Shown in pieces: positions 2,360 through 33,296 of a stretch of DNA of 64,000 nt (positions are counted from its first letter, which is position 1; every line of letters begins with the position of its first letter). Source of the stretch: an uncultured bacterium (lineage in GTDB: Bacteria; Patescibacteriota; Minisyncoccia; Moranbacterales; UBA2206). The DNA lies in NCBI GenBank assembly GCA_903937035.1, contig CAIZXS010000005.1, positions 62,746 to 126,745 of the forward strand, written 5' to 3'. Under the pieces are notes generated by a model. That model saw only the letters and a list, made by a program, of their open reading frames with translations, did not search any database and was not told the DNA's origin. The position numbers were made by a program, and so were the translations under genes.

Positions 2360-3319
2360 TTAGGTTTCTGATAGTTTTTTCTTGAAAATATCAAGAAGTT
2401 CTTGGTACATTTCTAGCATATAGGGTTTTTCTTCTGGGGTAAAAAATAGTCCAGGCATAGAGTTTAATTCAACTATCCAGGGTTTTTTGTTTTCATCAAA
2501 CATAAAATCAATAGAATATATGCGAGGGCTGAATGTGGCGAAAACGGTATGGGCATAAGTAATAATTGGCTGTAATGATTTGGGCAATTTTTCTTTGGGC
2601 ACAATAATAAGTGAGCCGCCTTGTGCAAGATTAGCTAGGAAGCTTCCATCTTTTGGTTCTCTGATATAGGCATAGATTAATTTATTATTAACAAAAACCA
2701 ATCTAAGGTCATGCATTTTTTTTGATACGCCCGGCACGCCACAAGAAGAGTCAATAAACTCTTGCACAATATTTTCTTTTTCTATTTTCTTAATTTTGCT
2801 AGTATTTTTTTTGCCCATGATTTGAACATCTTTCCCACCACTCTCACTAATCGGCTTTAGGACAATCTTTGTGGAATGAATTTGTGGGAGAATGTTTTTT
2901 AGTTCGCCTAAATTTTTTATGACCCAGCTTTTTTTTGACCATTTATCAAAAATTAGGCTAGTGGTCAGTTTATCATCAATAAGATTGGTAAATCTCAAGT
3001 CATTAATAAAGGGATATCGCTCACCAATCAATTCTTTTTTATAGTAAACTTCTAGGCGCGATTTTGTTTTATCATAAATCAAATCTGGCTGGATGTTTTT
3101 AACCTTTTTCCAATTAGCGCCCTCACCTTCAAATACCCAGGCATATTTAAAAAGCTGTTTCTTGTAATCGTACCACTCATAAGAGGCGCGATACATCTGG
3201 ATGTTATTTTTTTTACAAAGAGAGTAAAAATATTCATAAGAATATTGATAATCTTTATTGCTAAAGGGCTTGGCTTTTTTCCAATCGCTCTTACCAAAAA
3301 GGATCATTACTTTTTTCAT
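2360..3319 (-). CDS. ATP-grasp ligase, RimK-like (fourth of four tandem ATP-grasp genes)
   Basis: 319 aa. C-terminal motif IDFMFDENKKPWIVELNSMPGL matches the ATP-grasp E-x-N...PG signature. Overlaps the upstream gene by 4 nt (3316..3319). Confidence 0.6.
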   Translation of the reverse strand: MKKVMILFGKSDWKKAKPFSNKDYQYSYEYFYSLCKKNNIQMYRASYEWYDYKKQLFKYAWVFEGEGANWKKVKNIQPDLIYDKTKSRLEVYYKKELIGERYPFINDLRFTNLIDDKLTTSLIFDKWSKKSWVIKNLGELKNILPQIHSTKIVLKPISESGGKDVQIMGKKNTSKIKKIEKENIVQEFIDSSCGVPGVSKKMHDLRLVFVNNKLIYAYIREPKDGSFLANLAQGGSLIIVPKEKLPKSLQPIITYAHTVFATFSPRIYSIDFMFDENKKPWIVELNSMPGLFFTPEEKPYMLEMYQELLDIFKKKLSET

Positions 3320-4233
3320 ATATTTAAGGAAATTAGTTGAATTATTTTTTCAGCCACATTTATTTTTGGGTACACCGATTGGAATCCATCGAGTCCGAAA
3401 AATAAATTAACCTCAATTATTAAAAATCCATTGCTTGTTGATAGGATGTCCAGCCCAGCCAGCTCGAGACCCATTTTTTTGCACACGCCAACAGCAAAGC
3501 GGCTCATTTTTGAATTGCTATATTTTTCCACATGCCCTCCGAGAGAGTAGTTGTTTTTCCATTGTCCATTTTGAGCGCTCCTTTTCATTATGCCTAAACA
3601 TTTTCCGCCAACAACTAGCGCTCTGTAATCAGCTTCGTTTTTGACGTAGGGTTGAAAAATCGTATTGGTATTTCTTCGGTTTTCAATAAAGGCAGCTAGT
3701 TCTTTTTCATTTTTTAATTTCCACACACTACTTCCGCCGCCGCCATAGCTTTCTTTAGCAACAAGGGGGAAATGAAAGCCTTGGTTTTTTAAAAAATAAA
3801 AAACGCGTTCTTTTTTATTATCGCAAAAATGGATAGTTGGAATAGCTGGGATTTTTCGCGAAGCAAATATGTGCATCTGAGAAAACTTATTATAGAACGG
3901 ATATTGTTGAAAAAACTTAGAATTCGGAGTATAGATATTTTTATCTTTCAGTATGTCGAGCAAAACACTATATTCATTTTCCAGATTAAAGGGAATTTCT
4001 ACTCCGCTAGTTTTTTTTATGATTGGGAAGCGAAAGATGTCGAAAATAACGGAATTTATTTTTCTTAGGTTTAATTTATTTTTTCCAATATATACATCTT
4101 TTTTAAAAAAAGAAAGCTCGGACCATTTTGCGTATATATGGGGAATATTTGTTTTGTTCAAGGTAGGTATTATTTGCTGTTTTGAGCTAGATTCCTCACC
4201 AATACCTATTAACAGAATTTTTTTCATAGACAA
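3316..4233 (-). CDS. ATP-grasp ligase, RimK-like
   Basis: 305 aa. Glycine-rich loop ESYGGGGSSVWKL. C-terminal AGLDILSTSNGFLIIEVNLFFGLDG resembles RimK AGVDIL...MEVNASPGLEG. Confidence 0.65.
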   Translation of the reverse strand: MSMKKILLIGIGEESSSKQQIIPTLNKTNIPHIYAKWSELSFFKKDVYIGKNKLNLRKINSVIFDIFRFPIIKKTSGVEIPFNLENEYSVLLDILKDKNIYTPNSKFFQQYPFYNKFSQMHIFASRKIPAIPTIHFCDNKKERVFYFLKNQGFHFPLVAKESYGGGGSSVWKLKNEKELAAFIENRRNTNTIFQPYVKNEADYRALVVGGKCLGIMKRSAQNGQWKNNYSLGGHVEKYSNSKMSRFAVGVCKKMGLELAGLDILSTSNGFLIIEVNLFFGLDGFQSVYPKINVAEKIIQLISLNI

Positions 4234-4278
4234 GTCATATCTAATAAGGCCTTATTATTGTGTCCCAAGCTTTGGTCT

Positions 4279-5256
4279 TTATTTTTCAGATAGGTTACTT
4301 TTTTGTGTTGTACTGAGCTTTAAAATAAAATTGATAATATCCCTGATCACGTTTCTAGATTTTCCAGAAGTTGGATTATAATGGATGTAGATGTCGGGTT
4401 TTCCATTTATTTCTAGAATCCCAAATGTTTGATTAGCTGGGTCGGCGGAAATATCCTCGCAAATTATATCAATGCCGGCGAGATAATCGCCAATGGCGTC
4501 AGCAGCCTTGGAACAGATGGAGATAATTTTTGCATTAACTATATCCGTCACATCTCGAGTTTCTCCTCCTTCAGCTAGAGAGGAGCTTTTTTTAATTGAA
4601 GCGATTTCTCCTGCAGCCAGGATGTGATTAAGGGAAAATCCCTGCTCGCTTAATATTTTTTTCAAAGTTCTGTCTATGGGCGTCTTTCTGTGAGTGCTTT
4701 TTTGTTTTTCCTCAATGAGTTTTTCAATGGTAGAAAGGCCATCACCAAAAACTCTTGGCGGAATCATCTCTAATGCTCCAATAACCTTTTCATCTAACAT
4801 AAGAACGCGATATTCTTTGCCAAAAATCATCTCCTGGGCGATAAGAGTTCTGAAATTAGAAATCTCACTCGTTAATATGGAGATTGCTTCTTCTGAGTTT
4901 TTAATGTAAGGAAAAATTCCCTGGCTATTGGAGCCAGAGGAGTCTTTGATGATGATGGGAAATTTGAGGCCAGAAAGCTTGCTGGCAATATCTTTTTTTT
5001 GAAAGTTTTTTCTGAAAAAGAAAACCGTTTCTGGTGTTGGAAGGGAGCGTCTTCGCAGTAGTGTATAGGTTAAGTCTTTGTGTGTTGTTGCTCCTGCTAT
5101 GCTAATGAAGTTTTTGGCAATTCTGAATTTTCTTGTAATTAAAAAAGCCTTCCCTCGGACATGGATATAGTAGCAGCCTCGCTCAGGAATGACCTCCTCA
5201 AATGTTCCTCCCATTTCCTCGACAACTTTTCTGATCAGTGGTGGATTTTTTATCAT
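4279..5256 (-). CDS. ATP-grasp ligase, RimK/cyanophycin-synthetase-like
   Basis: 325 aa. LAGIDIICED...FGILEINGKPDI ATP-grasp signature. Directly abuts the upstream gene (5257). Confidence 0.6.
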   Translation of the reverse strand: MIKNPPLIRKVVEEMGGTFEEVIPERGCYYIHVRGKAFLITRKFRIAKNFISIAGATTHKDLTYTLLRRRSLPTPETVFFFRKNFQKKDIASKLSGLKFPIIIKDSSGSNSQGIFPYIKNSEEAISILTSEISNFRTLIAQEMIFGKEYRVLMLDEKVIGALEMIPPRVFGDGLSTIEKLIEEKQKSTHRKTPIDRTLKKILSEQGFSLNHILAAGEIASIKKSSSLAEGGETRDVTDIVNAKIISICSKAADAIGDYLAGIDIICEDISADPANQTFGILEINGKPDIYIHYNPTSGKSRNVIRDIINFILKLSTTQKSNLSEK

Positions 5257-6663
5257 TTACTTACTTGTATCAATTAAAAACTTTTTCAAATTAACCTTGC
5301 CAATAATCATTGGATATTGCATGTGGGATCGATCAACTATAGTCATCTTTGTGGAAGTAGTGATATTGTCCATGACAAATTCAATATTTATCATTGGGCG
5401 GTATGTATAGCCATGAGAGGATTTGACGGGAATAGCGGAAATGATATCGGGAATTTTTTCATATAATTTTCGACGCTCATCTCTGTTGGTATTTTTCAAA
5501 TCATCATAGGAAATGTTTAATTTTTCAAACTCCTCTAGCGCGCTGCCATAGCCCAGTTGTTGAGCCAATGCGTTGTCTATTGATGACCAATCAGCGCCTG
5601 TGTCAATCTTGGCTTCTATTTCGATTTCTTTTCCGTCCTTGCCAATAAGCCTTACTTTTTCTATTGCGCCGATTACTTTTTTTCCCGAAATTTCTTCCAG
5701 TTCTTCTTCGATTTCTCCTCCAAAGAGATCCATGCCAACGCGAATACCTTTTTTGACAGTTTTGATTTTGATACCAGCCGCTTTTTTCAATCGTCCCTTT
5801 AGTCCATCAAGATTAGCAACTTGAATGGCAAGGCCAGGGCGTGCATTTAATTCCAAAATTACTGGTCCTCGCTCTTTGTCTATTGCTACGTCAACCCCAA
5901 GAAAACCTAGGTTGGAAATTTCTTGTGAGCGAACAGCAATATTTAAGATGTCCATCCAATAGGGGATTTTGATTCCCGAAAGTAAGAGTCTTGTGCCAGG
6001 AACGTATTCAATAATTTTTTGTTTTCCAAGGACCGCTGTCGTTGTTACGCCAGAAGCAAGGTCGATGCCGACACCAATTGCACCTTGCGCCAGGTTAGCT
6101 TTTCCATGTGATTCTTTGGTGGGGAGGCGCAACATTGCCATGATGGGCATTTTATTGAAAACAATAATGCGAATATCTGGGATGCCTTTATATGCGTAGG
6201 GCTTAAAGAGTTTTAAAAGTTTTAAGCGTTCTTCGAAAAAGGCAATATCAGGAATCCCAGAAAGTGAATACGAGCCGTCTAGAATATTCCGTGTATGGTT
6301 TTTGAGGTCATTAATCGTAATAATTGAGCCATCGGCCTTCACCCAAGCATCATCTCTGCGCTTTTTTCGTCCATAAACAACGACAATGCCTTCACCGCCA
6401 AATCCGCGATTAGGTTTTAAAACAAAGCTATCGGGTAATTTTTGCCAATCAAAACCATCCAAATCTTCTAGAGATTTGATTTGAGAGATAAGGGCGGGAA
6501 CAGCAATATCATTTTTCTTGAGTACCCTTTTGCTCAGAAGTTTGTTGTCAGCCAGTCTTTTGGCGCTAACACGGTTGAATGGACGAATGTATTCCAGATT
6601 TCTGGCATTCATTCCGAGAATTCCCCGGCTTTTTTTGATAAATTCAAACATATAGTTTATCAC
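5257..6663 (-). CDS. Fusion protein: alpha-L-glutamate-ligase-like ATP-grasp (ATPgrasp_ST type) + C-terminal retropepsin-like RimB-type putative zinc protease domain (PF05618-like)
   Basis: 468 aa. N-terminus ILGMNARNLEYIRPFN and VILELNARPGLAIQ (ATP-grasp). C-terminus EIEIEAKIDTGADWSSID (D-T-G-A aspartic-protease-like motif) and YRPMINIEFVMDNITTSTKMTIVDRSHMQYPMIIGKVNLKKFLIDTS, matching the RimK-associated protease family pattern. Confidence 0.55.
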   Translation of the reverse strand: MINYMFEFIKKSRGILGMNARNLEYIRPFNRVSAKRLADNKLLSKRVLKKNDIAVPALISQIKSLEDLDGFDWQKLPDSFVLKPNRGFGGEGIVVVYGRKKRRDDAWVKADGSIITINDLKNHTRNILDGSYSLSGIPDIAFFEERLKLLKLFKPYAYKGIPDIRIIVFNKMPIMAMLRLPTKESHGKANLAQGAIGVGIDLASGVTTTAVLGKQKIIEYVPGTRLLLSGIKIPYWMDILNIAVRSQEISNLGFLGVDVAIDKERGPVILELNARPGLAIQVANLDGLKGRLKKAAGIKIKTVKKGIRVGMDLFGGEIEEELEEISGKKVIGAIEKVRLIGKDGKEIEIEAKIDTGADWSSIDNALAQQLGYGSALEEFEKLNISYDDLKNTNRDERRKLYEKIPDIISAIPVKSSHGYTYRPMINIEFVMDNITTSTKMTIVDRSHMQYPMIIGKVNLKKFLIDTSK

Positions 6664-6789
6664 ACACTAACTTCGTGCTGGCACAAAGTGCCAAATAGCT
6701 TTTTATAATAGGTAAATAATTTTTTTCCAACATTTTATTTAACCCCCCCAGTGGTTGCTGATAAAAGCATGGAGTTAGTGTGGGACCGG

Positions 6790-7455
6790 TTAGCTTCTCT
6801 TAATAATCTCCCCAAAGCGCAAATATTCACTGAGGCGCAGCCCTGTCCACTTACCAATGATAACGTTAAGCGGAATTGTGAGAAGAATAACCCATGGGTA
6901 AAAAGCGATAAAATGAATCAAGACTTCCCAGCTAGCAATATAAAAGCCGAGGATGGAAATTAGCAGTGTTTCTGTTGCCAGGAGAATGGCGGCGCGGTCG
7001 CCTTTTTCAATTTGAACGGCAATAAACTTTTCCACCAAAGTAATCATGATAAGAATAGGAAAAATCGAGACAGAGGCGAGTCCAGTTCTTTTTAAGCTTC
7101 CGCCAATCGCGAGCATCAAAAGAATGGAAAGAGCAACAATTGTAAGCATGATGGCCACTCGGGGAAGATAGAGAAGGCGAAAAGATTTAAGGGCAATTCG
7201 CATAAGCATCCCAATGAGAATGATCATTACAAAAATTAAAATCCCATATCTGAGCCCATCCGTCGCTAGAAAGGCGAAAGTGACCAAAAGCGGAGTGTAG
7301 ATTCCAAAAGCCTTAATCCCAATCACTTGGCGCAAAAAAGCGATAAGAGTGGCAATAATCGGTAGCATGAGGATTAGCTTGATTGTTTCAAAGGGCACGC
7401 CCTCATTTAAAAAGAACGTCAAAATAGGGCTAACACTGAAATTGATTTCATTCAT
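6790..7455 (-). CDS. Polytopic membrane protein, ~7 TM helices (possibly 7TM_transglut-like, no transglutaminase domain)
   Basis: 221 aa with seven hydrophobic segments. Start overlaps the ruvC stop by 4 nt (ATGA at 7452..7455), suggesting translational coupling. Lies immediately upstream of the ATP-grasp genes. Confidence 0.4.
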   Translation of the reverse strand: MNEINFSVSPILTFFLNEGVPFETIKLILMLPIIATLIAFLRQVIGIKAFGIYTPLLVTFAFLATDGLRYGILIFVMIILIGMLMRIALKSFRLLYLPRVAIMLTIVALSILLMLAIGGSLKRTGLASVSIFPILIMITLVEKFIAVQIEKGDRAAILLATETLLISILGFYIASWEVLIHFIAFYPWVILLTIPLNVIIGKWTGLRLSEYLRFGEIIKRS

Positions 7456-12505: not shown

Positions 12506-13522
12506 TTAAACTATTTTTGTGGGAAATTTAATTCCAAGGTGATTATAGGCTGCTTCAGTGGCAATTCTTCCCCGTGGTGTGCGGTTAAGAAAGCCTATTT
12601 GTAAGAGGTATGGCTCATAAACATCTTCAATCGTTTTGATTTCTTCTGATGTAGCTGCGGCAACGGTTGACAGGCCAACTGGACCGCCGGAAAATTTCTC
12701 AATAATGGTGCGAAGGATGTGTTTGTCGGCTGGCTCAAGACCCAACTCATCAACATCAATCATTTCTAGTGCTTCTCTGGCTCGTACGCTGTCTATGGTG
12801 GGATAATTTTTGATTTGAGAGAAATCTCTTACGCGCTTCAATAGGCGGTTCGCTACGCGAGGTGTACAACGGGCACATTTGGCGATTTCTGAGAGCCCGG
12901 TATCTTCCATTGGAACATCGAGAATTTTTCCAGAACGCCTGAGGATTCGTTCAATTTCTCCTTTTTCATAAAATTCCAAGCGATGAATGGCGCCAAAGCG
13001 GTTGCGCAGGGGATTGGAAAGCGAGCCAAGTTTTGTTGTTGCGCCGATCAGGGTAAATTTTGGCAAATCAAGTTGAATTGTGCGAGCAGATGGGCCCTTG
13101 CCAATCACAATGTCCAACTTAAAATCTTCCATTGCTGGGTAGAGCACTTCCTCGATAGATTTGTTGAGCCTGTGAATTTCATCAATAAAAAGAATGTCAC
13201 CATCTTGCAAATTGGTTAGAATAGAACCAAAATCGCCCACGCGTTCAATGGCTGGGCCGGAAGTGGTCTTAATGCTCACTCCGAGTTCTTTTGCGATAAT
13301 GTTGGCGAGCGTTGTTTTACCAAGTCCAGCTGGTCCATATAAAAGAACATGCTCAATCTGCTCTTTTCTCTTTTTGGCTGCTTGAATGAGGATGTCGAGG
13401 TTTTTTTTGACTTTTTCCTGCCCAACATACTCAGAAAAGCTTTGTGGACGCAAAGTATTATCCAAATTCAGATCTTCAATTTGTTCGTGGGAGTTTGTGA
13501 TCATAATAAGGCTATTATACAC
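12506..13522 (-). CDS. ruvB: Holliday junction branch migration helicase RuvB
   Basis: 338 aa. Walker [18 protein letters not shown], sensor/arginine-finger regions, C-terminal winged helix. Confidence 0.92.
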
Positions 13523-13774: not shown

Positions 13775-13804
13775 TAATAAAAAGTGGCTATAGCCACTTT
13801 TTAT
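13775..13804 (-). terminator. Bidirectional rho-independent terminator after the tandem GspE gene
   Basis: Perfect palindrome agtggctatagccact, flanked by an A run upstream and a T run downstream. Confidence 0.55.
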
Positions 13805-13827: not shown

Positions 13828-16800
13828 CTATATCTCTGTTACTCTTTCCACTTCCTCCAAAGTAGTCTCACCCTCTAAAACTTTCAAAATTCCATCTTGT
13901 GGCATTGTGATCATGCCTTCTTCCATGGCTTTTTGATTGAGTTCAGATGTGACTGCTCCTCGCATGACAGCTTCTTGGATTTCGCGGGAGAATGTAAATA
14001 TTTCACTGATGGTTGTGCGGCCCTTATAGCCAATGTGATTGCATTTATCGCAGCCATTGGGTTTGTGAATCTCTGATATTTCCGGGATTTCTACGCCTGC
14101 TTTTAGACTGATCGTTTTTAGGACTTTTTCCATCTTCTGTTTCTTTTCTTCAGTCGGAGCGATTTTTATTTTGCACTCACAGAGTGTGCGGACCAAGCGT
14201 TGAGCGATAAAAGCGTTGACTCCAGAGACAATATCCTCCGGTGCAACGCCCATATTGAGCATTCTAGCTACTGCTCCGGCAGCATTGTTGGTGTGGAGGG
14301 TGGAAAGTACGAGATGCCCCGTGAGAGCGGCTTGAACGGCAATGCTCGCGGTTTCATTGTCGCGGATTTCACCAATCATCATTATGTCGGGATTTTGGCG
14401 AAGCAGGGCGCGCAGGGCTGTGGAGAAAGTATAACCATCTTTTTCGCTGACGGGAGTTTGCAAGATACCTTCCATCTGATATTCGATTGGATCTTCCACG
14501 GTGATGATTTTGATTTCAGGATTTTTAATTAAATTCAAAATAGCATAGAGTGTAGTGGTTTTCCCGCTGCCAGTCGGTCCAGTATTCAAGACGACGCCAT
14601 TTGGTTTTGATACTTCAATTTTTATTTTTTCCAAATTTTGCTTTCTGATTCCTAGCTTATCCAAGTTCAGCTCCACAGATGATTTACTGAGAAGTCGCAT
14701 TACAACTGTTTCTCCAAACCCACCCAAAATTATAGACACACGGATGTCAACAGTCTTTTCTTTTAATTCTGTTAACTCTTCATCAAAACTGATACTAAAG
14801 CGACTATCGATTACACCTTGCCTCGCTTCAGTTTTCACGCCACTGAGCAGCTTGATCTGGCCCAAAAAGGTCGTGTATTCAGTAAGAGGAAGAGAGGCGA
14901 TTGTTTGGAGGATGCCATCAATGCGGAAGCGGATTTTGACGCTTTCCTTTTCTGGTTCAATGTGAATGTCTCCTACACTCAAAATTTGAGCAGCGGAAAA
15001 AATGATCTTAATGGTGTCTGTGATTTTTGTTCCAACAAGGAGCGTTTGCATTTTTTCAAAATCATTAACATTGTCCTTGGTTTTGTCAAAAAACTCCTTT
15101 TTAATCGGCAAGGTACTGCCTAGGATTTGTGACATTAATTTTTCATAAATACTTTCCAAAAAGTCCCCTTGTCCAGTGACTTTTTTCACCTCGTCAATGG
15201 AGGTGACACCACTTACGGCTTTTAGGATTCCATCTTGGAGCATTGTTACCATGCCTTCTTCAAGAACGGCCATCGTTATTTCTGTTTCACCAGCCAAATC
15301 AAGAATCAGTTTTTCTGTTTCCGGACTAATTGTGAGAACTTCAAAAATACCCATTCGTCCTTTATAACCAGTATTACCACATTTAAGGCAACCTTTTGGG
15401 CGATAGAGTTGATCAATGCTTTTGGGAATTTCCACTTTCGCTCGTGGAGAAATGATGGATAAAATTCTTTTGATTGAATCAATTGTTTCTTTGGCGGGAA
15501 CATAGGATTCTTTGCAGCTACAAAGCTTGCGAACTAGTCGTTGCCCGATAACGGCGTTTACTGCTGGGGCGATGAAAGAAGGCTTGACGCCCATTTCAAC
15601 GAGACGGGGAATGGAGGCAATTGCACTATTGGTATGAAAAGTGGAAAGCACGAGATGTCCAGTGAGGGCAGAGTTGATGGCGATGTCAGCTGTTTCATCA
15701 TCGCGGATTTCACCAACTAGAATAATATCTGGATCTTGACGCACGATTGCGCGAAGACCGGTGGCAAAAGTGTAGCCACGAGCTTTTTCGATCTGAGTTT
15801 GGGAGACTCCTTTGACTTGGTACTCGATTGGATCTTCGATGGTGATAATCTTTTTATCTGGAGTGTTTAGCTTGCTGATAATGGCATAAAGAGTGGTAGT
15901 TTTTCCGCTGCCAGTTGGCCCTGTAGTGAGGATCATGCCATTTGGGGCTTCGATTTGCTTTTGAACTGTTTCATAGGCTAATCCCTGCAATCCGAGCTGC
16001 TCAATGTTGACATTGATCGAATCTGGATCAAGGAGTCGCATTACGATGGACTCTCCAAAGCTGCCAGGAATCGATGAAGCGCGGATAGCAATTTTTTTAT
16101 TTGATAGATTGACCTCAAAAGTTCCGTCTTGCGCCATATCAGAAAGATTGAGTTTCATGCCAGACATCATCTTGATTCTTGTCGCGATTCTTTTGTGGAT
16201 ATTGAGTGGAAAAAAAGCCACATCCTGGAGTACTCCGTCGATTCGATAGCGCAAGCGAAAATCTTTTTCTTCTGGCTCAATGTGAACATCGGATGCTCCT
16301 AGTGAATATGCTCCGGCCATGATGGTGTTCATGACGTCGGTTATAGGCATTTCCTTGATTCTGTCTTTTAGGACAATCAGGTTTTTTAGGGCTGTTTCAA
16401 ATTCACCAAGTTCGCTGTCATCAATTGTTAGACTTAACTGATCAAGGATTTCAGCGAAAACAATTTTTTTGTATTTTTCCAAAACTCGATCAAAGTTGTA
16501 ACTTGAAATAACAAAGAGTTTTGTTTGTATCCCGAGTTTTTCGGAAAAAGCTTTAAGGAATTCTCTCGTGTCTTCTCTCGTGGGGTCGGTGGTTACGATT
16601 GTGGCAAGCTTGCTTTTTCGTTGGATGGCGGCAATGCCGAATTTTCTGGCAGCACTTTCTTCAATCAATTTCAAGCTATCAATGGAAACGGGAACAATGT
16701 TGGTGTCAATATAGGGGAGTTCAAGTTGGGCAGCAAATTGCGCTGTCTTTTCCTCTTCTGATTGATGCTGCAGCTTGGAAACTAATTTGCTTGAAGTGGC

Positions 16801-16848
16801 TTTTTTTTCTTCTTCTGCCCCAACTGTTTTTTTTGTTATTTTTATCAT
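13828..16848 (-). CDS. Type II/IV secretion system ATPase (GspE/PilB family) with two complete tandem ATPase cores in one polypeptide
   Basis: 1006 aa. N-terminal T2SE_Nter-like region. Two Walker A boxes (TGPTGSGKTTTLYAI twice), two Asp boxes, two His boxes (LVLSTFHTN / LVLSTLHTN) and two tetracysteine motifs (CSCK..CLKCGNTGYKGR and CECK..CDKCNHIGYKGR). Confidence 0.85.
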   Translation of the reverse strand: MIKITKKTVGAEEEKKATSSKLVSKLQHQSEEEKTAQFAAQLELPYIDTNIVPVSIDSLKLIEESAARKFGIAAIQRKSKLATIVTTDPTREDTREFLKAFSEKLGIQTKLFVISSYNFDRVLEKYKKIVFAEILDQLSLTIDDSELGEFETALKNLIVLKDRIKEMPITDVMNTIMAGAYSLGASDVHIEPEEKDFRLRYRIDGVLQDVAFFPLNIHKRIATRIKMMSGMKLNLSDMAQDGTFEVNLSNKKIAIRASSIPGSFGESIVMRLLDPDSINVNIEQLGLQGLAYETVQKQIEAPNGMILTTGPTGSGKTTTLYAIISKLNTPDKKIITIEDPIEYQVKGVSQTQIEKARGYTFATGLRAIVRQDPDIILVGEIRDDETADIAINSALTGHLVLSTFHTNSAIASIPRLVEMGVKPSFIAPAVNAVIGQRLVRKLCSCKESYVPAKETIDSIKRILSIISPRAKVEIPKSIDQLYRPKGCLKCGNTGYKGRMGIFEVLTISPETEKLILDLAGETEITMAVLEEGMVTMLQDGILKAVSGVTSIDEVKKVTGQGDFLESIYEKLMSQILGSTLPIKKEFFDKTKDNVNDFEKMQTLLVGTKITDTIKIIFSAAQILSVGDIHIEPEKESVKIRFRIDGILQTIASLPLTEYTTFLGQIKLLSGVKTEARQGVIDSRFSISFDEELTELKEKTVDIRVSIILGGFGETVVMRLLSKSSVELNLDKLGIRKQNLEKIKIEVSKPNGVVLNTGPTGSGKTTTLYAILNLIKNPEIKIITVEDPIEYQMEGILQTPVSEKDGYTFSTALRALLRQNPDIMMIGEIRDNETASIAVQAALTGHLVLSTLHTNNAAGAVARMLNMGVAPEDIVSGVNAFIAQRLVRTLCECKIKIAPTEEKKQKMEKVLKTISLKAGVEIPEISEIHKPNGCDKCNHIGYKGRTTISEIFTFSREIQEAVMRGAVTSELNQKAMEEGMITMPQDGILKVLEGETTLEEVERVTEI

Positions 16849-16973: not shown

Positions 16974-18116
16974 TTAAGTATTTATGAGTTGGGTACTTTC
17001 AATTTTGTCTCGAATGATTCTCGCGGTTAACATTAAATCGCTCTCGGTAGATTTAATTTCTAGCGCCTCATTGATTATGGGTTGTCCAAAAAGCAAGGAG
17101 ATTTTTCGAAGCAGCTCGTTGGTTGCTGCTTTGATAATAGCGATTGAGCTATTTGGGGCATTGCTATATATAATCATGAAAATTTGACCGTCGCTATAGT
17201 TCTCTTGTAGTTTTTCCAAAATTATCGGTAGGCTTTCTGGGCTGGTTCGGCTTTGAACAAAATCATCCAGAGAGAGGCTGGCCCAAGCTAGTTTGGTTTT
17301 TTCTTCCCAATTTAGCTTGCTCATGACTCTCCCGAGTAGTTTTAGGATTGATAGTGGCTGAGTTTTGTAGAGCCAGCGAATGATGCCTTGCTGATCGGCG
17401 CCTCGATCCATGAGATCGGCGGCGGCGAGTAGGGCTTTTGGCGTGGTGTTTTTCTTTTGGAAATTTCCAGTGGCACCAATGATTCCCGTCATGAGGCAAG
17501 TTGCTACATTTTTGTCAAAACTAGAAGGATCTACGCTTTCTAGTATTGGCTTTAAAATTTCTGCGCAAGATGAGGCTGTAATATCAACTAAATTGATTTG
17601 TCCAAAATTTTCATTGTTACTTCTGTGATCGATATTTATAATAGGAACCTCGAAGAATAGATCTGAGTTGTTGATGTAAACTGTTCCTAGGCTTTCTAAG
17701 TCTGGGCTATCTAAAATAACAATGAGGTCATATTTGAATTTGGCTAGGATGAAAGAAAAGTCTCTTGGATCAATTGAGCCTTTTTCAGGCGTAAGATAGA
17801 CGTTAAAAGAATCGCCAATTGTTTCTTGGCGCAGTCCCATGATTTTATTGCGACTAGTATCGAACGACAGGACGAATTCGCGCGCACCTGATATTTCTGA
17901 AATGATATTTTTCGGACCTGGGAGGAAGTCAATCTTTGCTTCAGAGGGTTTTTTATTTGAAACGATTGTGGCGGAAATGTTCTTGTTTTCCAAAAAAAAA
18001 TTCAATGCCCAGGCGCTTCCAATTGCGTCAAAGCTGGGATTTTCAGGAATGAAAATGAGCACATCCTTGGCGCCAGTGATGAATTTATAAAATTGTTCTT
18101 GTGGATCTAGGCTCAT
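16974..18116 (-). CDS. DHH-family phosphoesterase-like protein (NrnA-like architecture, motifs partly degenerate)
   Basis: 380 aa. VLIFIPENPSFDAIGSAWAL (motif I region) and NIDHRSN (DHH-like motif III reading DHR). C-terminal DHHA1-like region without a clean GGGH. Confidence 0.5.
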   Translation of the reverse strand: MSLDPQEQFYKFITGAKDVLIFIPENPSFDAIGSAWALNFFLENKNISATIVSNKKPSEAKIDFLPGPKNIISEISGAREFVLSFDTSRNKIMGLRQETIGDSFNVYLTPEKGSIDPRDFSFILAKFKYDLIVILDSPDLESLGTVYINNSDLFFEVPIINIDHRSNNENFGQINLVDITASSCAEILKPILESVDPSSFDKNVATCLMTGIIGATGNFQKKNTTPKALLAAADLMDRGADQQGIIRWLYKTQPLSILKLLGRVMSKLNWEEKTKLAWASLSLDDFVQSRTSPESLPIILEKLQENYSDGQIFMIIYSNAPNSSIAIIKAATNELLRKISLLFGQPIINEALEIKSTESDLMLTARIIRDKIESTQLINT

Positions 18117-18212: not shown

Positions 18213-18240
18213 AAAAAAGAGCCCTAATCAATAAGGGCTC
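18213..18240 (-). terminator. Rho-independent terminator after ispG
   Basis: Minus-strand hairpin gagcccttattgattagggctc followed by a T run. Confidence 0.55.
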
Positions 18241-18259
18241 CTAAAGGAGGGCTAATAAA

Positions 18260-19312
18260 TTATAATTTCTCGATTTCTTCCAAGAGTGTCTTGAGAATAT
18301 CCTTTTCCTGAACTGATTTAATTACCTTGCCTTTGGCAAATATCGCACCCATGCCTTTTCCGCCAGCCACGCCAATGTCGGCTTCACGCGCTTCACCAGG
18401 GCCGTTGACCACACAGCCCATAACAGCGATATGGATATCTTTGTCAATATTTTTCACCGCTGCTTCAACTTTTTCAGCCAAGTCGATGAGAGCAATTTGG
18501 GTTCGTCCACAAGTTGGGCAGCTGGTAACGGTTACACCTTTTTTTCTCAGTTTTAGTGATTTTAAAATCTCCCATGCCACTTTCATTTCTTCAACAGGAC
18601 TTGCCGTGAGTGAAACACGCAGAGTGGCGCCGATGCCTTCATAGAGGAGAATTCCAAGACCAATCGACGACATAATTGTTCCACGGAAAATTGTACCGGC
18701 TTCGGTGATACCAATGTGCATTGGGTAGTCAACTTTTTTGGACAAAAGGCGATAGGCTTCAACCGTTCTTTCAATGTCCGAGGCTTTCATGGAAATTAAG
18801 ATGTCTTTAAATTTATATTTTTCCAAAATTCGAATATGGCGCATGGCTGATTCAACCATCCCTGCTGCCGTGACCTTGTCTTTGTATTTTTTTAGTATGT
18901 CTTTTTCCAAAGAGCCGCCGTTAATGCCAATCCGAATTGGAATTTTGTTTTTCTTGCAAGCCATTACCACTGCCCTTATTTTGTCTTCTGTTCCTATATT
19001 TCCCGGATTGATGCGAACTTTGTCAATACCTTGCGCAATAACTTCGAGTGCTAATTTGTGATCAAAATGAATGTCGGCCACAAGTGGAATGTGAATTAGT
19101 TTTTTGATTTTCCCCACAGCTTTTGCTGCTTCCATGTCCAAAATGGCTACGCGCACAATCTCGCAGCCAGCTTTTTCTAGCTCCAAAATTTGTTTCACGG
19201 TTGCCTTGATATCTCGCGTATCGGTGTTGCACATTGATTGTACGCGCACAGGATTTCCACCGCCCAGCTTGTATGGTCCAACTTTGACGACGCGGGATTT
19301 GTATTTTTTCAT
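18260..19312 (-). CDS. ispG: 4-hydroxy-3-methylbut-2-en-1-yl diphosphate synthase IspG/GcpE
   Basis: 350 aa. MKKYKSRVVKVGPYKLGGGNPVRVQSMCNTDT.., C-terminal Fe-S cysteines CPTCGR. Confidence 0.9.
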   Translation of the reverse strand: MKKYKSRVVKVGPYKLGGGNPVRVQSMCNTDTRDIKATVKQILELEKAGCEIVRVAILDMEAAKAVGKIKKLIHIPLVADIHFDHKLALEVIAQGIDKVRINPGNIGTEDKIRAVVMACKKNKIPIRIGINGGSLEKDILKKYKDKVTAAGMVESAMRHIRILEKYKFKDILISMKASDIERTVEAYRLLSKKVDYPMHIGITEAGTIFRGTIMSSIGLGILLYEGIGATLRVSLTASPVEEMKVAWEILKSLKLRKKGVTVTSCPTCGRTQIALIDLAEKVEAAVKNIDKDIHIAVMGCVVNGPGEAREADIGVAGGKGMGAIFAKGKVIKSVQEKDILKTLLEEIEKL

Positions 19313-19334
19313 GTAATTAGGATGTTTTAAAAAT

Positions 19335-20204
19335 TTAGGCTATTTCTATAAAAAACTGTGGGTAATATTTTTGGAGAATCTCTCTTGCTCTGAGCACATC
19401 CCTCTTTGTTTCAAAAATTCCGAAGACCGTTGGTCCCTTGCCAGTAAGGGATACTCCAATTGCGCCAAAAGAAATGAGTGCTTTTTCTAGTGTTTCTGAA
19501 ATTGGGTATTTTTTCTTAGCTACGATTGAGAAGTCATTATACAGGCATCGGCTCATTTCATTCAGGTTGGAGCTATTTTTCACAAATTTAGCAGAAAGAT
19601 TTTTTCTTTTTGGGTTGTTCATAAAAAGCAAATCTTTGTCGAGCTCGGAGTATGCCCAGGGGGTGGAAATTTCTCCAGCAGGATTGATGACTAGAATATT
19701 AAGTTTTGGAAAACTTTTGATTTCTTTGATTTTCTCTCCCATGCCACAAATGAGGGCAGCGCGAGAATTTGAGATAAAAAAAGGGATATCTTTTCCGACT
19801 TCTGCGGCTATATCGATGAGCTCTCTTTGGGATAAAATATTTTTAAAATGAGTATTGAGGGTTAAGATAACCGCTGCGCCGTTGGAACTTCCCCCGGCCA
19901 TTCCAGCCGATAGTGGAATGTTTTTCTCGATGAATATCCTTAGCCCGACGGATTTTCCTGTTTTTTTAAAAAAACGTTCAGCAATTTTCCAGCAAATATT
20001 CTTTTCGTCAATCGGGACAGCAGGGATATTGCAAATGATTTCAATACCATTTTTATTTTCATCAAAAATAAGCTCAATTTTATCGAAAAGATTCTCTGTT
20101 TTTAGCATCACTGAGCGAAGTTCATGAAAACCACTAGGTAGTTTTTTTGTCACCTCCAGAGTCAAGTTTAGTTTAGCGGGTGATTTCACTTTAATTTTTT
20201 TCAT
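19335..20204 (-). CDS. ispE: 4-diphosphocytidyl-2-C-methyl-D-erythritol kinase IspE
   Basis: 289 aa. KVKSPAKLNLTLEV, GHMP kinase motif PLSAGMAGGSSNGAA. Confidence 0.85.
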   Translation of the reverse strand: MKKIKVKSPAKLNLTLEVTKKLPSGFHELRSVMLKTENLFDKIELIFDENKNGIEIICNIPAVPIDEKNICWKIAERFFKKTGKSVGLRIFIEKNIPLSAGMAGGSSNGAAVILTLNTHFKNILSQRELIDIAAEVGKDIPFFISNSRAALICGMGEKIKEIKSFPKLNILVINPAGEISTPWAYSELDKDLLFMNNPKRKNLSAKFVKNSSNLNEMSRCLYNDFSIVAKKKYPISETLEKALISFGAIGVSLTGKGPTVFGIFETKRDVLRAREILQKYYPQFFIEIA

Positions 20205-20679
20205 CCTTGACCAGACTAATAATTACAAAAACCTGGATTCCTTCACCTTTTCCGAAAGCGGTCAGTTTTTCTCCCGAAGTAGCATTGATTCCAATTTGAG
20301 ACTTTTCAATTTCTAGGAGCTTGGTTAAACTTTCCTTCATTTTTTCTTCTAGTGGGATTATTTTTGGTCTTTGGCATTCCAAAGAAATCCCAATATTATT
20401 AATCACATATCCTCTTTCTTTTATATGGCGCATGGCTACTTTTAAATATTCACGGCTATCATTAATTCCCGCTTGATTCATTTTATCCGCATAGATAGAA
20501 AAAGACTCTCCTCCAATTGCCTGTTCTAACGCGCGACAAATCGCGTGAATTACAGCATCGCCATCAGAATTTCCCTCAAGGCTGGGCTCATTTTCAATTT
20601 CAATTCCACCTAAAATTAATTTTTTGTCCGGATTCCCTGAAAATTTATGAGAATCTTGTCCTAGTCCAACTCGAAACAT
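20191..20679 (-). CDS. ispF: 2-C-methyl-D-erythritol 2,4-cyclodiphosphate synthase IspF
   Basis: 162 aa. MFRVGLGQDSHKF.. and GNSDGDAVIHA. Confidence 0.9.
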   Translation of the reverse strand: MFRVGLGQDSHKFSGNPDKKLILGGIEIENEPSLEGNSDGDAVIHAICRALEQAIGGESFSIYADKMNQAGINDSREYLKVAMRHIKERGYVINNIGISLECQRPKIIPLEEKMKESLTKLLEIEKSQIGINATSGEKLTAFGKGEGIQVFVIISLVKDEKN

Positions 20680-20683
20680 ATTT

Positions 20684-21385
20684 TTAATAGTTTTTTAGGA
20701 TTAATTTTGCCAATTCCAAATCTAGTGGCGTTGTTAATTTAAAGTTATTTTTTGAGGCTTCAATTATTTTCACTTTTTTCCCAAATCTTTCAACAAGGCT
20801 TACATCGTCAGTGCCCAGAAAATTATCAGAGTTGGCTTTTTGAAAAGCTTTTTTTGCCAGGGTAAATTGAATTGCTTGTGGAGTTTGCATGTTCCAAAGT
20901 TTTGATCTGTCGAGAACTTGGATGGAAAGGCCATATTTATTGACTTCTCGAATAGTATCCTTTGTTCTGTGGGCAACGGCGCAAGCGCCACGCTTTCTTG
21001 CTTCCATGACACAAGAATGCAACTCCAAATTAGTTACAAAAGGGTTCGCTCCATTGTGGAAAATCAATATTAGCCCTTGTTTGCCTTTGTTGTCAAACGA
21101 AGTGTCAATAAAGTCAATCCCGGCATAACTCGAATCTTGTCTCTCTTTTCCGCCAGGAATTATTCCCAGTATTTTTTTAAATTTATATTTTTTAACGATT
21201 TTCTCGAAAGTGTTTCGGTCTTTTTCTTGAGCTACCAAAACAATGCCGTCGATATCTTTCGATTTTTCGAATGCTTCTAATACATAAAAAATAATCGGTT
21301 TTCCTCCGAGAGTAATAAGCGTTTTATTTTTCCCCGCGCCCATTCTTTTTCCAATTCCAGAAGCGAGGATGATTCCAATATTCAT
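20684..21385 (-). CDS. ispD: 2-C-methyl-D-erythritol 4-phosphate cytidylyltransferase IspD
   Basis: 233 aa. MNIGIILASGIGKRMG N-terminal nucleotidyltransferase motif. Confidence 0.85.
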   Translation of the reverse strand: MNIGIILASGIGKRMGAGKNKTLITLGGKPIIFYVLEAFEKSKDIDGIVLVAQEKDRNTFEKIVKKYKFKKILGIIPGGKERQDSSYAGIDFIDTSFDNKGKQGLILIFHNGANPFVTNLELHSCVMEARKRGACAVAHRTKDTIREVNKYGLSIQVLDRSKLWNMQTPQAIQFTLAKKAFQKANSDNFLGTDDVSLVERFGKKVKIIEASKNNFKLTTPLDLELAKLILKNY

Positions 21386-21392
21386 AGGCGTG

Positions 21393-22535
21393 TTATTTTG
21401 AAAACTCTAAAAATTCTTTTGCCATTTCTCTTGCGTCAGTTATTGCTTTCTCAATATCAGTCAATTCTGGGCTAAAAACTGGATTATGTGCATCCATAAC
21501 TTTTTTAATTACAGTCTGGATGTCGAGGAACCGACACTCATGTTTTAGGAATTTTTCAACCATATAATCATTGGCTGCGTTCATGGCTGCCGGCAATGTC
21601 CCCCCAATTCTAGCAGCTTTGAGTGCAAATCCCAAGCAGGGAAATCTTTCGAGATCCGGTTCTTTGAAGGTTAGGCTCTTGGAAAAATCCCAACGCTTAA
21701 TGGGAGCATCCCAGCGTTCAGGATAGGAAAGTGCGTATTGGATTGGCAAGCGCATATCTGGATCAGAGAGTTGAGCAATAACGCTTGCATCAGAATATTC
21801 CACCATGGAGTGTATGATGCTTTCTGGATGGATAACTACTTTTATTTTTTCGATCGGCATGTTATAGAGCCACATTGCCTCAATCACTTCAAATCCTTTA
21901 TTCATCAGTGTGGCAGAGTCGATAGTAATTTTTTTGCCCATGCTCCATGTCTTATGTCCCAGCGCTTCTTCTACGGTCACGGACGGCATTTCTTCTTTAG
22001 TCTTGTCGCGCAGGGCGCCTCCTGAACATGTGATAATTAGCTGGTGAACTGTTTTTGGATTTTCTCCATTCAAACATTGAAAGAGGGCTGAATGCTCAGA
22101 ATCAATCGGCATCAGTTTGATGTTATTTTTTTTCACTTCTCGCATCACAAGCTCTCCTGCTGCGACCAGTGTTTCTTTATTGGCAAGAGCAATGTCCTTT
22201 TTGTGTTTGATAGCTTCCAATGTGGCTTTTATTCCTGAAAGGCTGACAAGGGAATTGATGAGCGTATCATATTCGGAAAGCGCGGCAATTTTAATTGAAG
22301 CATCCTCTCCTGAAAAAACAGGAATGTTTATCTGTTTTTCCAGTTCCTTGGCTTTTTTCTCATTAGCCACTCCAGCAAAAAGCGGATGATATTTTTCTAT
22401 TTGAGTCTTTAGTAGGGTAATATTATTATTGGCACTAAGCGCAATAATCTTGAATTTGTCAGGATATTGGTCCACCACGTCAAGCACTTGTGTTCCGACA
22501 TTTCCCGTACTACCAAGAATAGCGAGTTTTTTCAT
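21393..22535 (-). CDS. dxr: 1-deoxy-D-xylulose 5-phosphate reductoisomerase Dxr
   Basis: 380 aa. MKKLAILGSTGNVGTQVLDVV NADPH-binding N-terminus and conserved C-terminal domain. Confidence 0.9.
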   Translation of the reverse strand: MKKLAILGSTGNVGTQVLDVVDQYPDKFKIIALSANNNITLLKTQIEKYHPLFAGVANEKKAKELEKQINIPVFSGEDASIKIAALSEYDTLINSLVSLSGIKATLEAIKHKKDIALANKETLVAAGELVMREVKKNNIKLMPIDSEHSALFQCLNGENPKTVHQLIITCSGGALRDKTKEEMPSVTVEEALGHKTWSMGKKITIDSATLMNKGFEVIEAMWLYNMPIEKIKVVIHPESIIHSMVEYSDASVIAQLSDPDMRLPIQYALSYPERWDAPIKRWDFSKSLTFKEPDLERFPCLGFALKAARIGGTLPAAMNAANDYMVEKFLKHECRFLDIQTVIKKVMDAHNPVFSPELTDIEKAITDAREMAKEFLEFSK

Positions 22536-30329: not shown

Positions 30330-31094
30330 TTAGCTTAATTGATTATTCAACTCTGGCGATTTGCTTGGAATCATATGCCACATCGTCCTGTGGATGCTCA
30401 AAAGGCTTTCATAAATCTTCTGGCTTTCGATAATTAGTCCAAACTGTTCTTCGAAAGACATGATGCCAACTTTATTATATCCATAAAGATTGATGCTGAC
30501 TGTAATTTTGAAAAATTCTGAATTGACCGCCTTGAACCGGCGGAATTGTACAGTATTCTTTTTGGCAATTTCTTTGAATTTTTCGGTGTCTGGATGGAGA
30601 CTATTGACCCAGACCTTATTCTTTATTCGAATAGGGATGTAAATATCATCAACCCATTTGGCATCAAAATTTGAGAGCCATGTTTCTGAATACCAAGAGT
30701 ATGTCTCTTTGACCGAGCTATTGGCGATAGCCCTAAATACCTCCTTGATTCCTTCTTCCCCTTCAAAAAAGCGAATGATTGGCTTTTTATCAATCAAGTT
30801 GGTGATGGAAAGCAGTTGTGGCATTAGTTTATCGACTGCTTCCATTTTTTCTACCAGCGTATGTTTAATTTTCTTAGGATTTTCGGCGTAGTATATTGAC
30901 TTCCCTTTCTTTTTATAGTGGCTAACCAGCCCCTTCTTGCCCAGTGAGGTCAAAACTAAATAGACCGTGGTTCTTTTGACTCCTGATTTTCTCGATAAGC
31001 GTTCGACGCTGGTCTCTCCTAGTTCCAAAGCGGCCAAATAGACTTTGGCCTCGTTGGCGCTGAGATCTAGCTTTTCTAGTTCATTAAAAAGCAT
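30330..31094 (-). CDS. TrmB-family transcriptional regulator (paralog 1 of 3)
   Basis: 254 aa. N-terminal wHTH LDLSANEAKVYLAALELGETSVERLSRKSGVKRTTVYLVL typical of TrmB. C-terminal effector domain. Confidence 0.6.
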   Translation of the reverse strand: MLFNELEKLDLSANEAKVYLAALELGETSVERLSRKSGVKRTTVYLVLTSLGKKGLVSHYKKKGKSIYYAENPKKIKHTLVEKMEAVDKLMPQLLSITNLIDKKPIIRFFEGEEGIKEVFRAIANSSVKETYSWYSETWLSNFDAKWVDDIYIPIRIKNKVWVNSLHPDTEKFKEIAKKNTVQFRRFKAVNSEFFKITVSINLYGYNKVGIMSFEEQFGLIIESQKIYESLLSIHRTMWHMIPSKSPELNNQLS

Positions 31095-32549: not shown

Positions 32550-33296
32550 CTATTTTTTTGCCATCTTCCAAAGTAAATCAAAATAGGATAGATAGGATTT
32601 GCGAAAATCTTCGTTTTTTATTTCAATGCAAAACATATCTTCACCACTGCCTGTGCCATAGGAATTGAGGGTGATGGAATCGTGCCAGATGTCAAAAGAT
32701 GTCGGTGAGGAATAGCCTTCCGGCAAAAAGCGATATTCCGAATTGGCGCGTTTCACGAGCTTCGCTTCTTCGGAGCCGATATTGCCAAAAATCAGCCTTG
32801 TTTTAATATTTTTTTTCGTGCGGATGCGATTGCTTCTTTCAAATACGCCGGATTTCTGCATCAATTCTTTGAACCGCATTGCTGCGCCAGTGACAACCAG
32901 ATATTCAGAATTGATTGGCATTAAATCATCTTTTCGCATAATCAATTCGCGATAAGCTTTTGCGCCTTCATAGATCCTGATTTCTTGGCCTTTCTTCTGG
33001 CCGACCAATTTTGCATTGATTTCTTCCATCAAATTCTTAGCCACAACTTCTTGTTGCCTAATGTTATCCAAAATATTTTGCGGATTGGCGATGCGAAAAA
33101 CCAAGCGGTTATTTTTGGTGGTTTTTAGCACCATTTTTTTATTCTCGAGTCCATCCAGCGCGTCATAGGCAACTTGTCGATGCATTCCTAGTTTTTTGAT
33201 TAAGGGGCCAACCGTATTTTCGCCCAATTCTAAAAGCGCATTATAGATTTTAATCTCATTGGGTGTGAGTCCAAGTTGTTTTAGTTCGTTTTCCAT
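32550..33296 (-). CDS. TrmB-family transcriptional regulator (paralog 2 of 3)
   Basis: 248 aa. LGLTPNEIKIYNALLELGENTVGPLIKKLGMHRQVAYDAL wHTH. C-terminus ends ..YFDLLWKMAKK like paralog 3. Confidence 0.6.
   Translation of the reverse strand: MENELKQLGLTPNEIKIYNALLELGENTVGPLIKKLGMHRQVAYDALDGLENKKMVLKTTKNNRLVFRIANPQNILDNIRQQEVVAKNLMEEINAKLVGQKKGQEIRIYEGAKAYRELIMRKDDLMPINSEYLVVTGAAMRFKELMQKSGVFERSNRIRTKKNIKTRLIFGNIGSEEAKLVKRANSEYRFLPEGYSSPTSFDIWHDSITLNSYGTGSGEDMFCIEIKNEDFRKSYLSYFDLLWKMAKK

Follow-up and report, generated by a model that had tools for sequence, protein, structure and literature searches.

A 64,000-nt stretch of DNA from an uncultured bacterium of the Moranbacterales (Patescibacteriota; UBA2206; GenBank assembly GCA_903937035.1, contig CAIZXS010000005.1, positions 62,746 to 126,745), here called the window, carries a gene for a secretion ATPase of the PilB/GspE type with two complete motor cores in one polypeptide. 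The gene lies on the minus strand, a point that we add to the original prediction for this DNA. Our reading is that it encodes a functional motor ATPase whose whole motor unit was duplicated in place, and that three such chains would form a ring of six cores with alternating sites. We put the probability of this reading, for which we infer the stoichiometry of the ring and the partner machine, at roughly 0.55.

Judged by its sequence, the protein clearly belongs to the PilB/GspE clade; its multi-core architecture appears to be undescribed and the 'orphan' lineage in which it falls uncharacterised. Full-text searches, and the reviews or primers that we read, yielded no mention of PilB/GspE ATPases that are fused, in tandem or duplicated (subscription-only papers were outside this scope); heterohexamers figure in a 2019 primer, but only as an open idea. 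Two-core sequences have been present in public databases under generic names since 2012-2015.

Two complete motor cores in one reading frame

The 1006-aa protein matches the Pfam family T2SSE in two stretches (E = 5e-226), and its halves align with each other across 397 aa at 47% identity (E = 5e-133), far beyond chance. One open reading frame (ORF), two T2SSE matches and 47% identical halves bear out the earlier proposal of an in-frame tandem duplication of a whole secretion-ATPase core. Profile alignment (hhalign) carries the homology between the halves upstream into the short linker that precedes the N2 domain (N2D); the duplicated unit therefore consists of linker, N2D and carboxy-terminal domain (CTD), with a period of 447 aa. 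The amino-terminal N1 domain (T2SSE_N/MshEN), previously assigned to the first copy only, indeed occurs once in the Pfam search, which finds no second N1 domain ahead of core 2; the pre-N2D linker is duplicated there instead (hhalign). The junction between the cores had been placed at ~15250-15400 and lies instead at aa 561-608, that is, nt 15025-15168.

Every hallmark motif had been read twice in the same frame, and we could map each of them in both cores (Table 1). The Walker A motif GPTGSGKTTTLYA (GPTGSGKT) lies at aa 310 and 757 and is present in two copies in 118 of 119 orthologs. The Asp box EDPIE lies at aa 338 and 785, the GEIRD motif at aa 379 and 826, within an atypical Walker B motif (DPDxxxxGEIRD) that holds the catalytic Glu, and the His box (TGHLVLST.H) at aa 396 and 843. 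Asp box, Walker B with its Glu, and His box are invariant across the family alignment, and both cores retain P-loop Lys, Asp box, GEIRD and His box throughout the deep family. The tetracysteine motif is also there twice (C443/C445/C487/C490 in core 1 and C890/C892/C933/C936 in core 2), with all four Cys invariant in each core; the part of the earlier description that does not stand is the spacing of the first pair, which is CxC in each core here and CxxC in many relatives. These residues are predicted to bind Zn.

We mapped the protein onto Geobacter metallireducens PilB through an alignment to 5TSG, in which the chain index minus 20 equals the residue number, as checked with E357 and T327. 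The arginine fingers R271 and R286 of that protein correspond to R256 and R271 in core 1 and to R703 and R718 in core 2, all of them invariant, and its inter-unit Arg, R455, corresponds to R440 in core 1 and R887 in core 2, invariant in both. Both sets of motifs are kept in 118-119 of 119 orthologs, so a comparison of the two halves, suggested together with the original prediction, ends with canonical catalytic residues and arginine fingers on both sides. As aligned, both cores keep every residue known for ATP binding, hydrolysis and inter-unit sensing, and the protein is apparently a functional motor ATPase of the PilB/GspE class in which both units are active.

The two cores are both constrained but non-equivalent: in their alignment, 127 conserved positions carry the same residue in both cores, as against 27 that are conserved within each core yet differ between them. 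A difference at a conserved residue concerns the Arg of the PQDGR motif, which is present in 38 of 41 operon-type PilBs, in 20 of 21 other single-core PilBs and in 23 of 24 second cores of two-core proteins ('doubles'), compared with 9 of 24 first cores. In the clade of the window's protein, the position is occupied in core 1 by Thr, His or Asn (here T243), and core 2 keeps the Arg (here R683). We considered T243 as a lost arginine finger and rejected this, as the 5TSG mapping identifies the fingers as the xRVS and VxRLL arginines, both kept, and the replaced residue as the equivalent of G. metallireducens R257. In G. metallireducens PilB, R257 bridges to the Asp-box Glu (E357, which coordinates Mg) in the open interface bound to AMP-PNP. 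Its absence marks core 1 as a variant and does not exclude membership of the PilB/GspE clade. The two types of site would probably differ at the nucleotide-exchange step, core 1 acting without the R257-equivalent Arg.

On a stronger interpretation of this difference, the chain would have one pseudo-ATPase or purely regulatory core, probably core 1, that binds nucleotide without hydrolysing it and leaves the work to the other. The replacement of a near-universal Arg speaks for this, as does an independently evolved two-core relative, described below, whose core 1 is clearly dead. Yet in core 1 the Walker A Lys, Asp-box Glu, GEIRD Glu, His box and both fingers are invariant; conservation is, if anything, higher in core 1 than in core 2 (0.87 vs 0.83), and the non-synonymous divergence (dN) of core 1 is lower; and the more basal doubles retain the PQDGR Arg in core 1. 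We consider it improbable that either core is idle.

The main worry attached to the original prediction was an assembly or annotation artefact, in which adjacent paralogous genes had been collapsed or joined by a lost stop codon. Several observations speak to this. First, the DNA of the halves shares three stretches of 86-156 nt with 71% identity at most, so that reads cannot be confused or collapsed between halves that are 47% identical as proteins. Second, 118 of the 120 best database matches have lengths of 1004-1024 aa and identities of 65-98%; their sources are NCBI, JGI, ENA and Logan assemblies, and they bear the names Moranbacteria, Parcubacteria or Pacebacteria 'GspE/PulE family protein'. 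When 1.84 billion representatives at the 50%-identity level were searched exhaustively, 13-14 more full-length two-core representatives emerged, down to 36-39% identity, some labelled 'Paceibacterota' and one a GenBank entry of 2015. The uninterrupted architecture is thus found in more than 118 clusters from many samples, independent assemblies and several assemblers, as well as in deep relatives. Third, the linker, with a conservation of 0.63 vs 0.79-0.87 in the cores, has a conserved motif of its own, of the form GD-F/Y-L/I-E-x-I/L-Y..., common to the main family of doubles and to both linkers of a three-core relative; AlphaFold2 (AF2) models it with a predicted local distance difference test score (pLDDT) of 84-89 at aa 580-610. 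Fourth, the ratio of dN to synonymous divergence (dS) is low where estimable, at 0.04-0.09 in core 1, 0.03-0.12 in core 2 and 0.08-0.21 in the linker, which is weaker support since dS is close to saturation and the values are rough. With these observations we regard an artefact as effectively refuted and the gene as real. Both cores appear to be under strong purifying selection, and the two-core architecture, as read from these matches, is ancient and occurs widely among Moranbacteria and other Paceibacterota.

An orphan PilB lineage with one, two or three cores

In a neighbour-joining tree of the separated cores (200 bootstraps), all cores of the doubles and a set of single-core proteins that have no pilus operon form one orphan clade apart from the operon-type PilBs, with 98% bootstrap support. 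This tree places the doubled ATPase in a patescibacterial lineage of orphan PilBs, apart from the lineage encoded in pilB-pilC-pilin operons; the ultra-small bacteria of the candidate phyla radiation (CPR) thus carry a second PilB lineage outside the pilus operon. The single-core proteins L028-L036 group with core 1 of the Falkowbacteria-type doubles (98%). The shared linker motif supports one origin of the main family of doubles; on that view, some lineages would later have lost core 2.

One true single-core relative (P0139, 565 aa, on a 30-kb contig) occupies the same DHH-PilB-RuvB slot and groups with core 1 at 79% bootstrap. Because a single-core gene fills the same slot, the duplication seems to have happened in place: an ancestral gene with one core would already have stood at this chromosomal position, and its motor unit of pre-N2D linker, N2D and CTD would have been doubled in frame within it. 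Four further proteins that look single-core (P0155, P0157, P0179 and P0242) nest among core-1 or core-2 sequences; they lie on contigs of 1.9-3.5 kb, are probably truncated doubles and were not used as evidence.

A relative of 1460 aa (P0015, 51% identity; L003 10001-14383, JGI 3300022698 Ga0248662_100121), known from one contig only, has three complete cores, and its locus has a DHH-like gene upstream. The middle core is chimeric, its N2D being core-2-like and resembling that of core 3 and its carboxy-terminal part resembling core 1, and the copies are now 54-58% identical; the pattern, as we read it, is the signature of an old unequal crossover rather than of faulty assembly. Among the top-scoring matches of either search, where a summed score would rank such a protein, none has four or more cores. 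In every lineage, independent duplications included, the repeat recurs with a period of 429-450 aa.

In three other two-core proteins the cores are sisters of each other: P0128 (L007, 100% bootstrap), P0140 (L009, 97%) and P0127 (in the first tree only). They lack the linker motif of the main family and point to independent duplications; for P0128, gene conversion is an alternative, given the shared ruvB neighbour. P0140 (GCA_964384625.1, CAYLNH010000035.1; L009 10001-13144) is a protein of 1047 aa from a high-GC genome outside the CPR and combines, in this order, two soluble T2SSF (PilC-type) stretches without a transmembrane segment, a dead core and an intact core. In the dead core, the Walker A Lys is replaced by Thr and the Asp box is degenerate. 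The gene directly follows a pair of genes for an extracytoplasmic function (ECF) sigma factor and its anti-sigma factor. The chain offers a Rosetta-stone-like hint of a 2:2 pairing of platform and motor.

A proposed ring of linked motor cores

Each core is 39-43% identical to the PilB and PilF proteins of known structure (G. metallireducens 5TSG, 5TSH and 6OLJ; G. sulfurreducens 5ZFR; Thermus thermophilus 5OIU and 5IT5), and the protein shares with them the N2D+CTD fold, Walker A, Asp box, Walker B Glu, His box, fingers, tetracysteine and T2SSE_N domain. Foldseek superposes the N2D+CTD unit of the AF2 model on PilF 5OIU and PilB 5TSH and 5ZFR with template-modelling scores of 0.85-0.90 and root-mean-square deviations of 2.6-3.6 Å. 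By contrast, the known PilBs are homohexamers of single-core chains, and all solved chains that are closely related (E <= 1e-20) contain one ATPase core each; the protein in the window has two cores that share one N1 domain, a conserved inter-core linker, no adjacent pilC or pilin genes and no R257-equivalent in core 1. GspE (Vibrio cholerae EpsE 1P9R and 4KSR, V. vulnificus 4PHT) belongs to the same clade and has the same motifs, but the window offers no context of a type II secretion system (T2SS), and CPR bacteria are without an outer membrane and secretin. Further, GspE hexamers have been obtained only by engineered fusion to Hcp1, whereas here the subunits are naturally linked to one another. 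T. thermophilus PilF (913 aa) is likewise a PilB-class protein enlarged by internal repeats, but what is repeated are three N-terminal GSPII domains, and it has one ATPase core.

In PilB, one chain's N2D and its neighbour's CTD form a rigid 'packing unit', and nucleotide is sensed across units. We propose that three two-core chains would form a single six-core pseudo-hexamer, A-B-A-B-A-B, and that the three-core relative would need two chains. Such a ring would bear three N1 domains and two chemically distinct kinds of site in alternation. It would fit the alternating C3 'OCOCOC' state of PilT4 and PilU (6OJY, 6OK2, 9N32), whose pattern of open and closed interfaces it would favour; PilT and PilU differ in being homohexamers in which alternation is conformational only, PilT is without an N1 domain and Zn motif, and the cores described here are closer to PilB than to PilT (E = 1e-100 vs 1e-33). 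In the C2 'CCOCCO' cycle of PilB, the same ring would alternate A-type and B-type steps, and a ring of two chains, A-B-C-A-B-C, would match an exact C2 symmetry.

The 3 x 2 layout would also mirror the platform. In the model of Pelicic (2023), the ATPase hexamer acts on a PilC trimer in which each PilC has two Cyt domains. PilC/GspF offers a precedent from the same machine, as an internally duplicated, pseudo-dimeric chain that is proposed to sit as a trimer under the ATPase hexamer, and TadB and TadC, as fission products, are its counterpart. It is a different protein family, however, and the duplication that we describe is in the motor, not in the platform.

Six chains could alternatively form two stacked rings, with coaxial hexamers of core 1 and of core 2. 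In p97, ClpB, KaiC and dynein, several P-loop ATPase modules share one polypeptide and their sites can specialise. Tandem modules form two stacked rings in p97, ClpB and KaiC, as tandem domains of other ring ATPases usually do, and dynein carries six AAA modules in one chain, a single-chain ring that is closer in spirit to our model. A linker of ~48 aa could span between rings. These ATPases belong to unrelated branches, however, as the modules here are PilT-like (T2SSE) and not of the AAA+ or KaiC type. The N2D face of a PilB-type hexamer would have to meet the membrane platform, and a lower ring would be without access to it; core numbers seen are 2 and 3, both divisors of six; and each chain has a single N1 domain. 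Because the ~48-aa linker is structured, each chain has one N1 domain and only two- and three-core chains are seen, we favour the single three-chain ring and consider stacked rings unlikely. The ring-interface arginines R440 and R887, kept in both cores, are compatible with single or stacked rings.

The open questions about PilB, GspE and PilT motors include C2 'CCOCCO' versus C3 'OCOCOC' firing, mixed hexamers, and the match of a six-fold motor to a duplicated PilC. A natural chain that joins two non-identical cores, or three in the relative, would give a direct handle on these three questions: alternate sites could be mutated separately without engineered linkers, and a 3 x 2 or 2 x 3 stoichiometry could be read by mass. 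If the protein is an ordinary PilB paralog after all, the finding would be a modest architectural curiosity.

Possible partner machine and gene neighbourhood

The ring would most likely drive a PilC-type platform encoded elsewhere in the genome and, through it, power the assembly of a type IV filament, either a pilus or a DNA-uptake pilus. Pili are considered central to how CPR bacteria live as episymbionts. Published CPR-wide counts give PilC in 2152 genomes (compared with 1985 for gyrB and 1983 for EF-Ts), PilT in 1999, and ~1.8 PilB-family proteins per genome; these counts make it very probable that a PilC platform is available, and it is common for PilB paralogs to coexist. Type IV pili are reported in general terms by a study of activated-sludge bins, two of them Moranbacteria bins. 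In many other Patescibacteria, PilBs of 583-585 aa are followed by pilC and at least three prepilin genes (Pfam-verified), and PilC seeds match 42 single-core Patescibacteria loci by tblastn. The protein in the window is not of this operon type, as both its cores fall in the orphan clade and no pilC or pilin genes adjoin it. Its NCBIfam scores, 867 bits against a cut-off of 676 for PilB (TIGR02538) and 876 against 630 for GspE (TIGR02533), do not assign it specifically to either, since they sum two cores and both models pass. A 19,281-bp contig with an ordinary pilB-pilC-pilin operon was set aside, being a different contig from the one bearing the double, and no two loci come from one assembly among the loci listed in our scan of genome collections.

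The gene neighbourhood was scanned in one genome per GTDB species, over at least 80 loci. The Moranbacteria-type order, tsaE / DHH-like, ATPase, ruvB, bPH_2, LTD protein, yebC, ruvC, is strongly conserved, and in the window the ATPase gene is flanked by ruvB and a DHH-family gene (Table 1), as had been reported. A DHH-like gene lies immediately upstream in 17 double or triple loci and also adjoins the single-core orthologs L008 and L088. Its motifs are degenerate: PDxD (motif I) has become PENPSFD, DHH has become DHR, DHK, DNH or DYR, DTG (motif IV) has become GAT or SAT, and there is no GGGH. Besides the copy in the window, such genes are at L001 8592-9722, L003 8782-9909, L004 8719-9876 and L008 85-1233. 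From its sequence and position, this DHH-like pseudo-enzyme is a candidate partner, possibly regulatory, of the ATPase. The two genes may be co-transcribed. A consensus scan finds a terminator-like site at 18217-18242 (minus strand) upstream of the DHH gene and none in the spacer between the DHH gene and the ATPase gene; two other minus-strand sites lie inside the DHH gene.

This setting bears on a further alternative, namely that the orphan lineage has left pilus biogenesis for a role without PilC and pilins, such as nucleic-acid handling or DNA uptake with the DHH-like neighbour and the Ruv genes. The orphan clade is distinct from the operon PilBs (98% bootstrap), 29 double or triple loci have no pilC or pilin gene near them, the pairing with the DHH-like pseudo-enzyme is stable, with ruvB, yebC and ruvC close by, and ABY1-type relatives adjoin genes for a multi-pass membrane protein, a Translin-family protein and a metallophosphoesterase. 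Against this, the protein retains all PilB/GspE signatures, including the Zn tetracysteine and the machine-docking N1 domain; neighbourhoods in reduced genomes are mostly housekeeping synteny and may lack functional meaning; and PilC is near-universal and PilB paralogs are common in the CPR. A non-pilus role for the whole lineage seems to us unlikely.

Several points weigh against a three-chain ring that drives a PilC platform. The full-length AF2 model has a mean pLDDT of 77 and a predicted template-modelling score of 0.44, which makes the placement of domains unreliable; a model of CTD-1, linker and N2D-2 (aa 286-735, from an 18-sequence alignment) is uninformative, with a mean pLDDT of 49; and AF2 models do not fix the stoichiometry, which leaves room for stacked rings. 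All trees are neighbour-joining trees, and monophyly of all second cores has 42% bootstrap, weak support from the tree for a single origin of core 2. The saturation of dS mentioned above belongs here as well. The window has no pilC, pilM, pilT, pilD or prepilin gene by Pfam, leader regular expression and tblastn with verified PilC seeds, as the original prediction had stated for pilC, pilM and prepilin genes; no pilC, pilin, pilM or pilT gene lies within 6-10 kb of the 29 double or triple loci either, and the PilC seeds match 0 of the 29. The PilC profile search has no Moranbacteria-named match, and the argument that this genome has PilC or a second, operon-type PilB rests on CPR-wide statistics.

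We also entertain, tentatively, a broader idea: the concatenated ring with specialised alternate sites and the dead DHH/NrnA-like partner might together form an unrecognised machine of Paceibacterota, which would either not drive a pilus or serve the PilC platform as a second motor with a different gearing. We hold this to be rather unlikely. If it is true, the re-invention of the two-core design in P0127, P0128 and P0140 would make the pairing of adjacent subunits a basic functional unit of these motors.

Table 1. Positions of the two-core ATPase gene, its parts and its nearest neighbours in the window
Feature	Position (nt)	Strand	Details
Two-core PilB/GspE-type ATPase, whole gene	13828-16848	minus	1006-aa single ORF, ATG start; stop codon 13828-13830
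N1 domain (T2SSE_N/MshEN), single copy	16471-16725	minus	aa 42-126; Pfam PF05157, E = 1.2e-5, one stretch
Core 1	15169-16353	minus	aa 166-560; N2D-1 15994-16353, CTD-1 15169-15993
Core 1, T243 codon	16120-16122	minus	position of the PQDGR Arg (G. metallireducens PilB R257)
Core 1, Walker A	15898-15921	minus	
Core 1, Asp box	15823-15837	minus	
Core 1, GEIRD	15700-15714	minus	
Core 1, His box	15634-15663	minus	
Core 1, Zn cysteines	within 15379-15522	minus	
Inter-core linker	15025-15168	minus	aa 561-608; conserved motif GDFLESIYEKLM; mainly helical in model
Core 2	13831-15024	minus	aa 609-1006; N2D-2 14653-15024, CTD-2 13831-14652
Core 2, R683 codon	14800-14802	minus	
Core 2, Walker A	14557-14580	minus	
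Core 2, Asp box	14482-14496	minus	
Core 2, GEIRD	14359-14373	minus	
Core 2, His box	14293-14322	minus	
Core 2, Zn cysteines	within 14041-14181	minus	
Palindromic hairpin, 12-bp stem	13777-13804		just past the ATPase stop codon; consensus scan only; possible end of the transcription unit
DHH/NrnA-like gene, upstream neighbour	16974-18116	minus	380 aa; Pfam DHH 2.9e-8; NCBIfam NrnA 7.6e-8, far below cut-off
ruvB	12506-13522		

Other genes of the window and of related loci

Directly upstream of the DHH-ATPase pair, at 18260-22535 (minus strand), lies a contiguous run of ORFs that resemble, as judged from their translations, ispG, ispE, ispF, ispD and dxr of the methylerythritol phosphate (MEP) pathway. 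On the other side, downstream of ruvC, a conserved cluster at 2360-7455 (minus strand) recurs in the same order at L001 19738-23021 and L004 19056-22104. Its genes encode a membrane protein of the 7TM_transglut type together with three or four ATP-grasp proteins similar to RimK, of which one also carries a fused Zn-protease (RimB-like) domain; this composition suggests a system for peptide ligation or modification.

In Falkowbacteria- and Buchananbacteria-type loci (L060 4904-9999, L062 4798-10034, L030 4806-8292, L032 4909-7653), the orphan PilB, whether single or double, is preceded by a conserved predicted membrane protein of 325-344 aa, which has the amino terminus M..YR..LKQAW...YLWFFGLFA and matches no Pfam family above threshold. 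A Translin-family protein follows the orphan PilB in L060, L062 and L030, and a metallophosphoesterase comes directly after the Translin-family gene in L060 and L062 and further downstream in L030. L008, from a genome with a single-core syntenic ortholog, encodes after ruvB a 404-aa protein (4605-5819) with a match to T4SS_pilin (PF18895).

No Rfam RNA family was detected in the window. Seven consecutive ORFs without a Pfam family occupy 47966-54777 (plus strand): four encode Ser/Thr/Gly-rich secreted proteins with similar carboxy termini (...TVTALAN, ...VVATGKF, ...VVVTGRY), two encode proteins with a signal peptide, a carboxy-terminal transmembrane helix and a basic tail, and one encodes a 412-aa protein anchored at its carboxy terminus. 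In these features they look like a cell-surface filament or adhesin cluster, not like type IV pilins. From 55259 to 64000 (plus strand), an open frame of more than 2914 codons with a signal- or transmembrane-like start runs past the end of the window, presumably encoding a giant surface protein. We rejected the idea that 55.3-64 kb, where the ORF list appeared empty, is RNA or non-coding DNA: a single very large open frame fills it, and the list missed this frame because it runs off the window. Three paralogous regulators of the TrmB family, ~250 aa each, are encoded within 11 kb (30330-31094, 32550-33296 and 40470-41279, all on the minus strand), adjoined by a gene with an ORF6N domain at 41387-42088.

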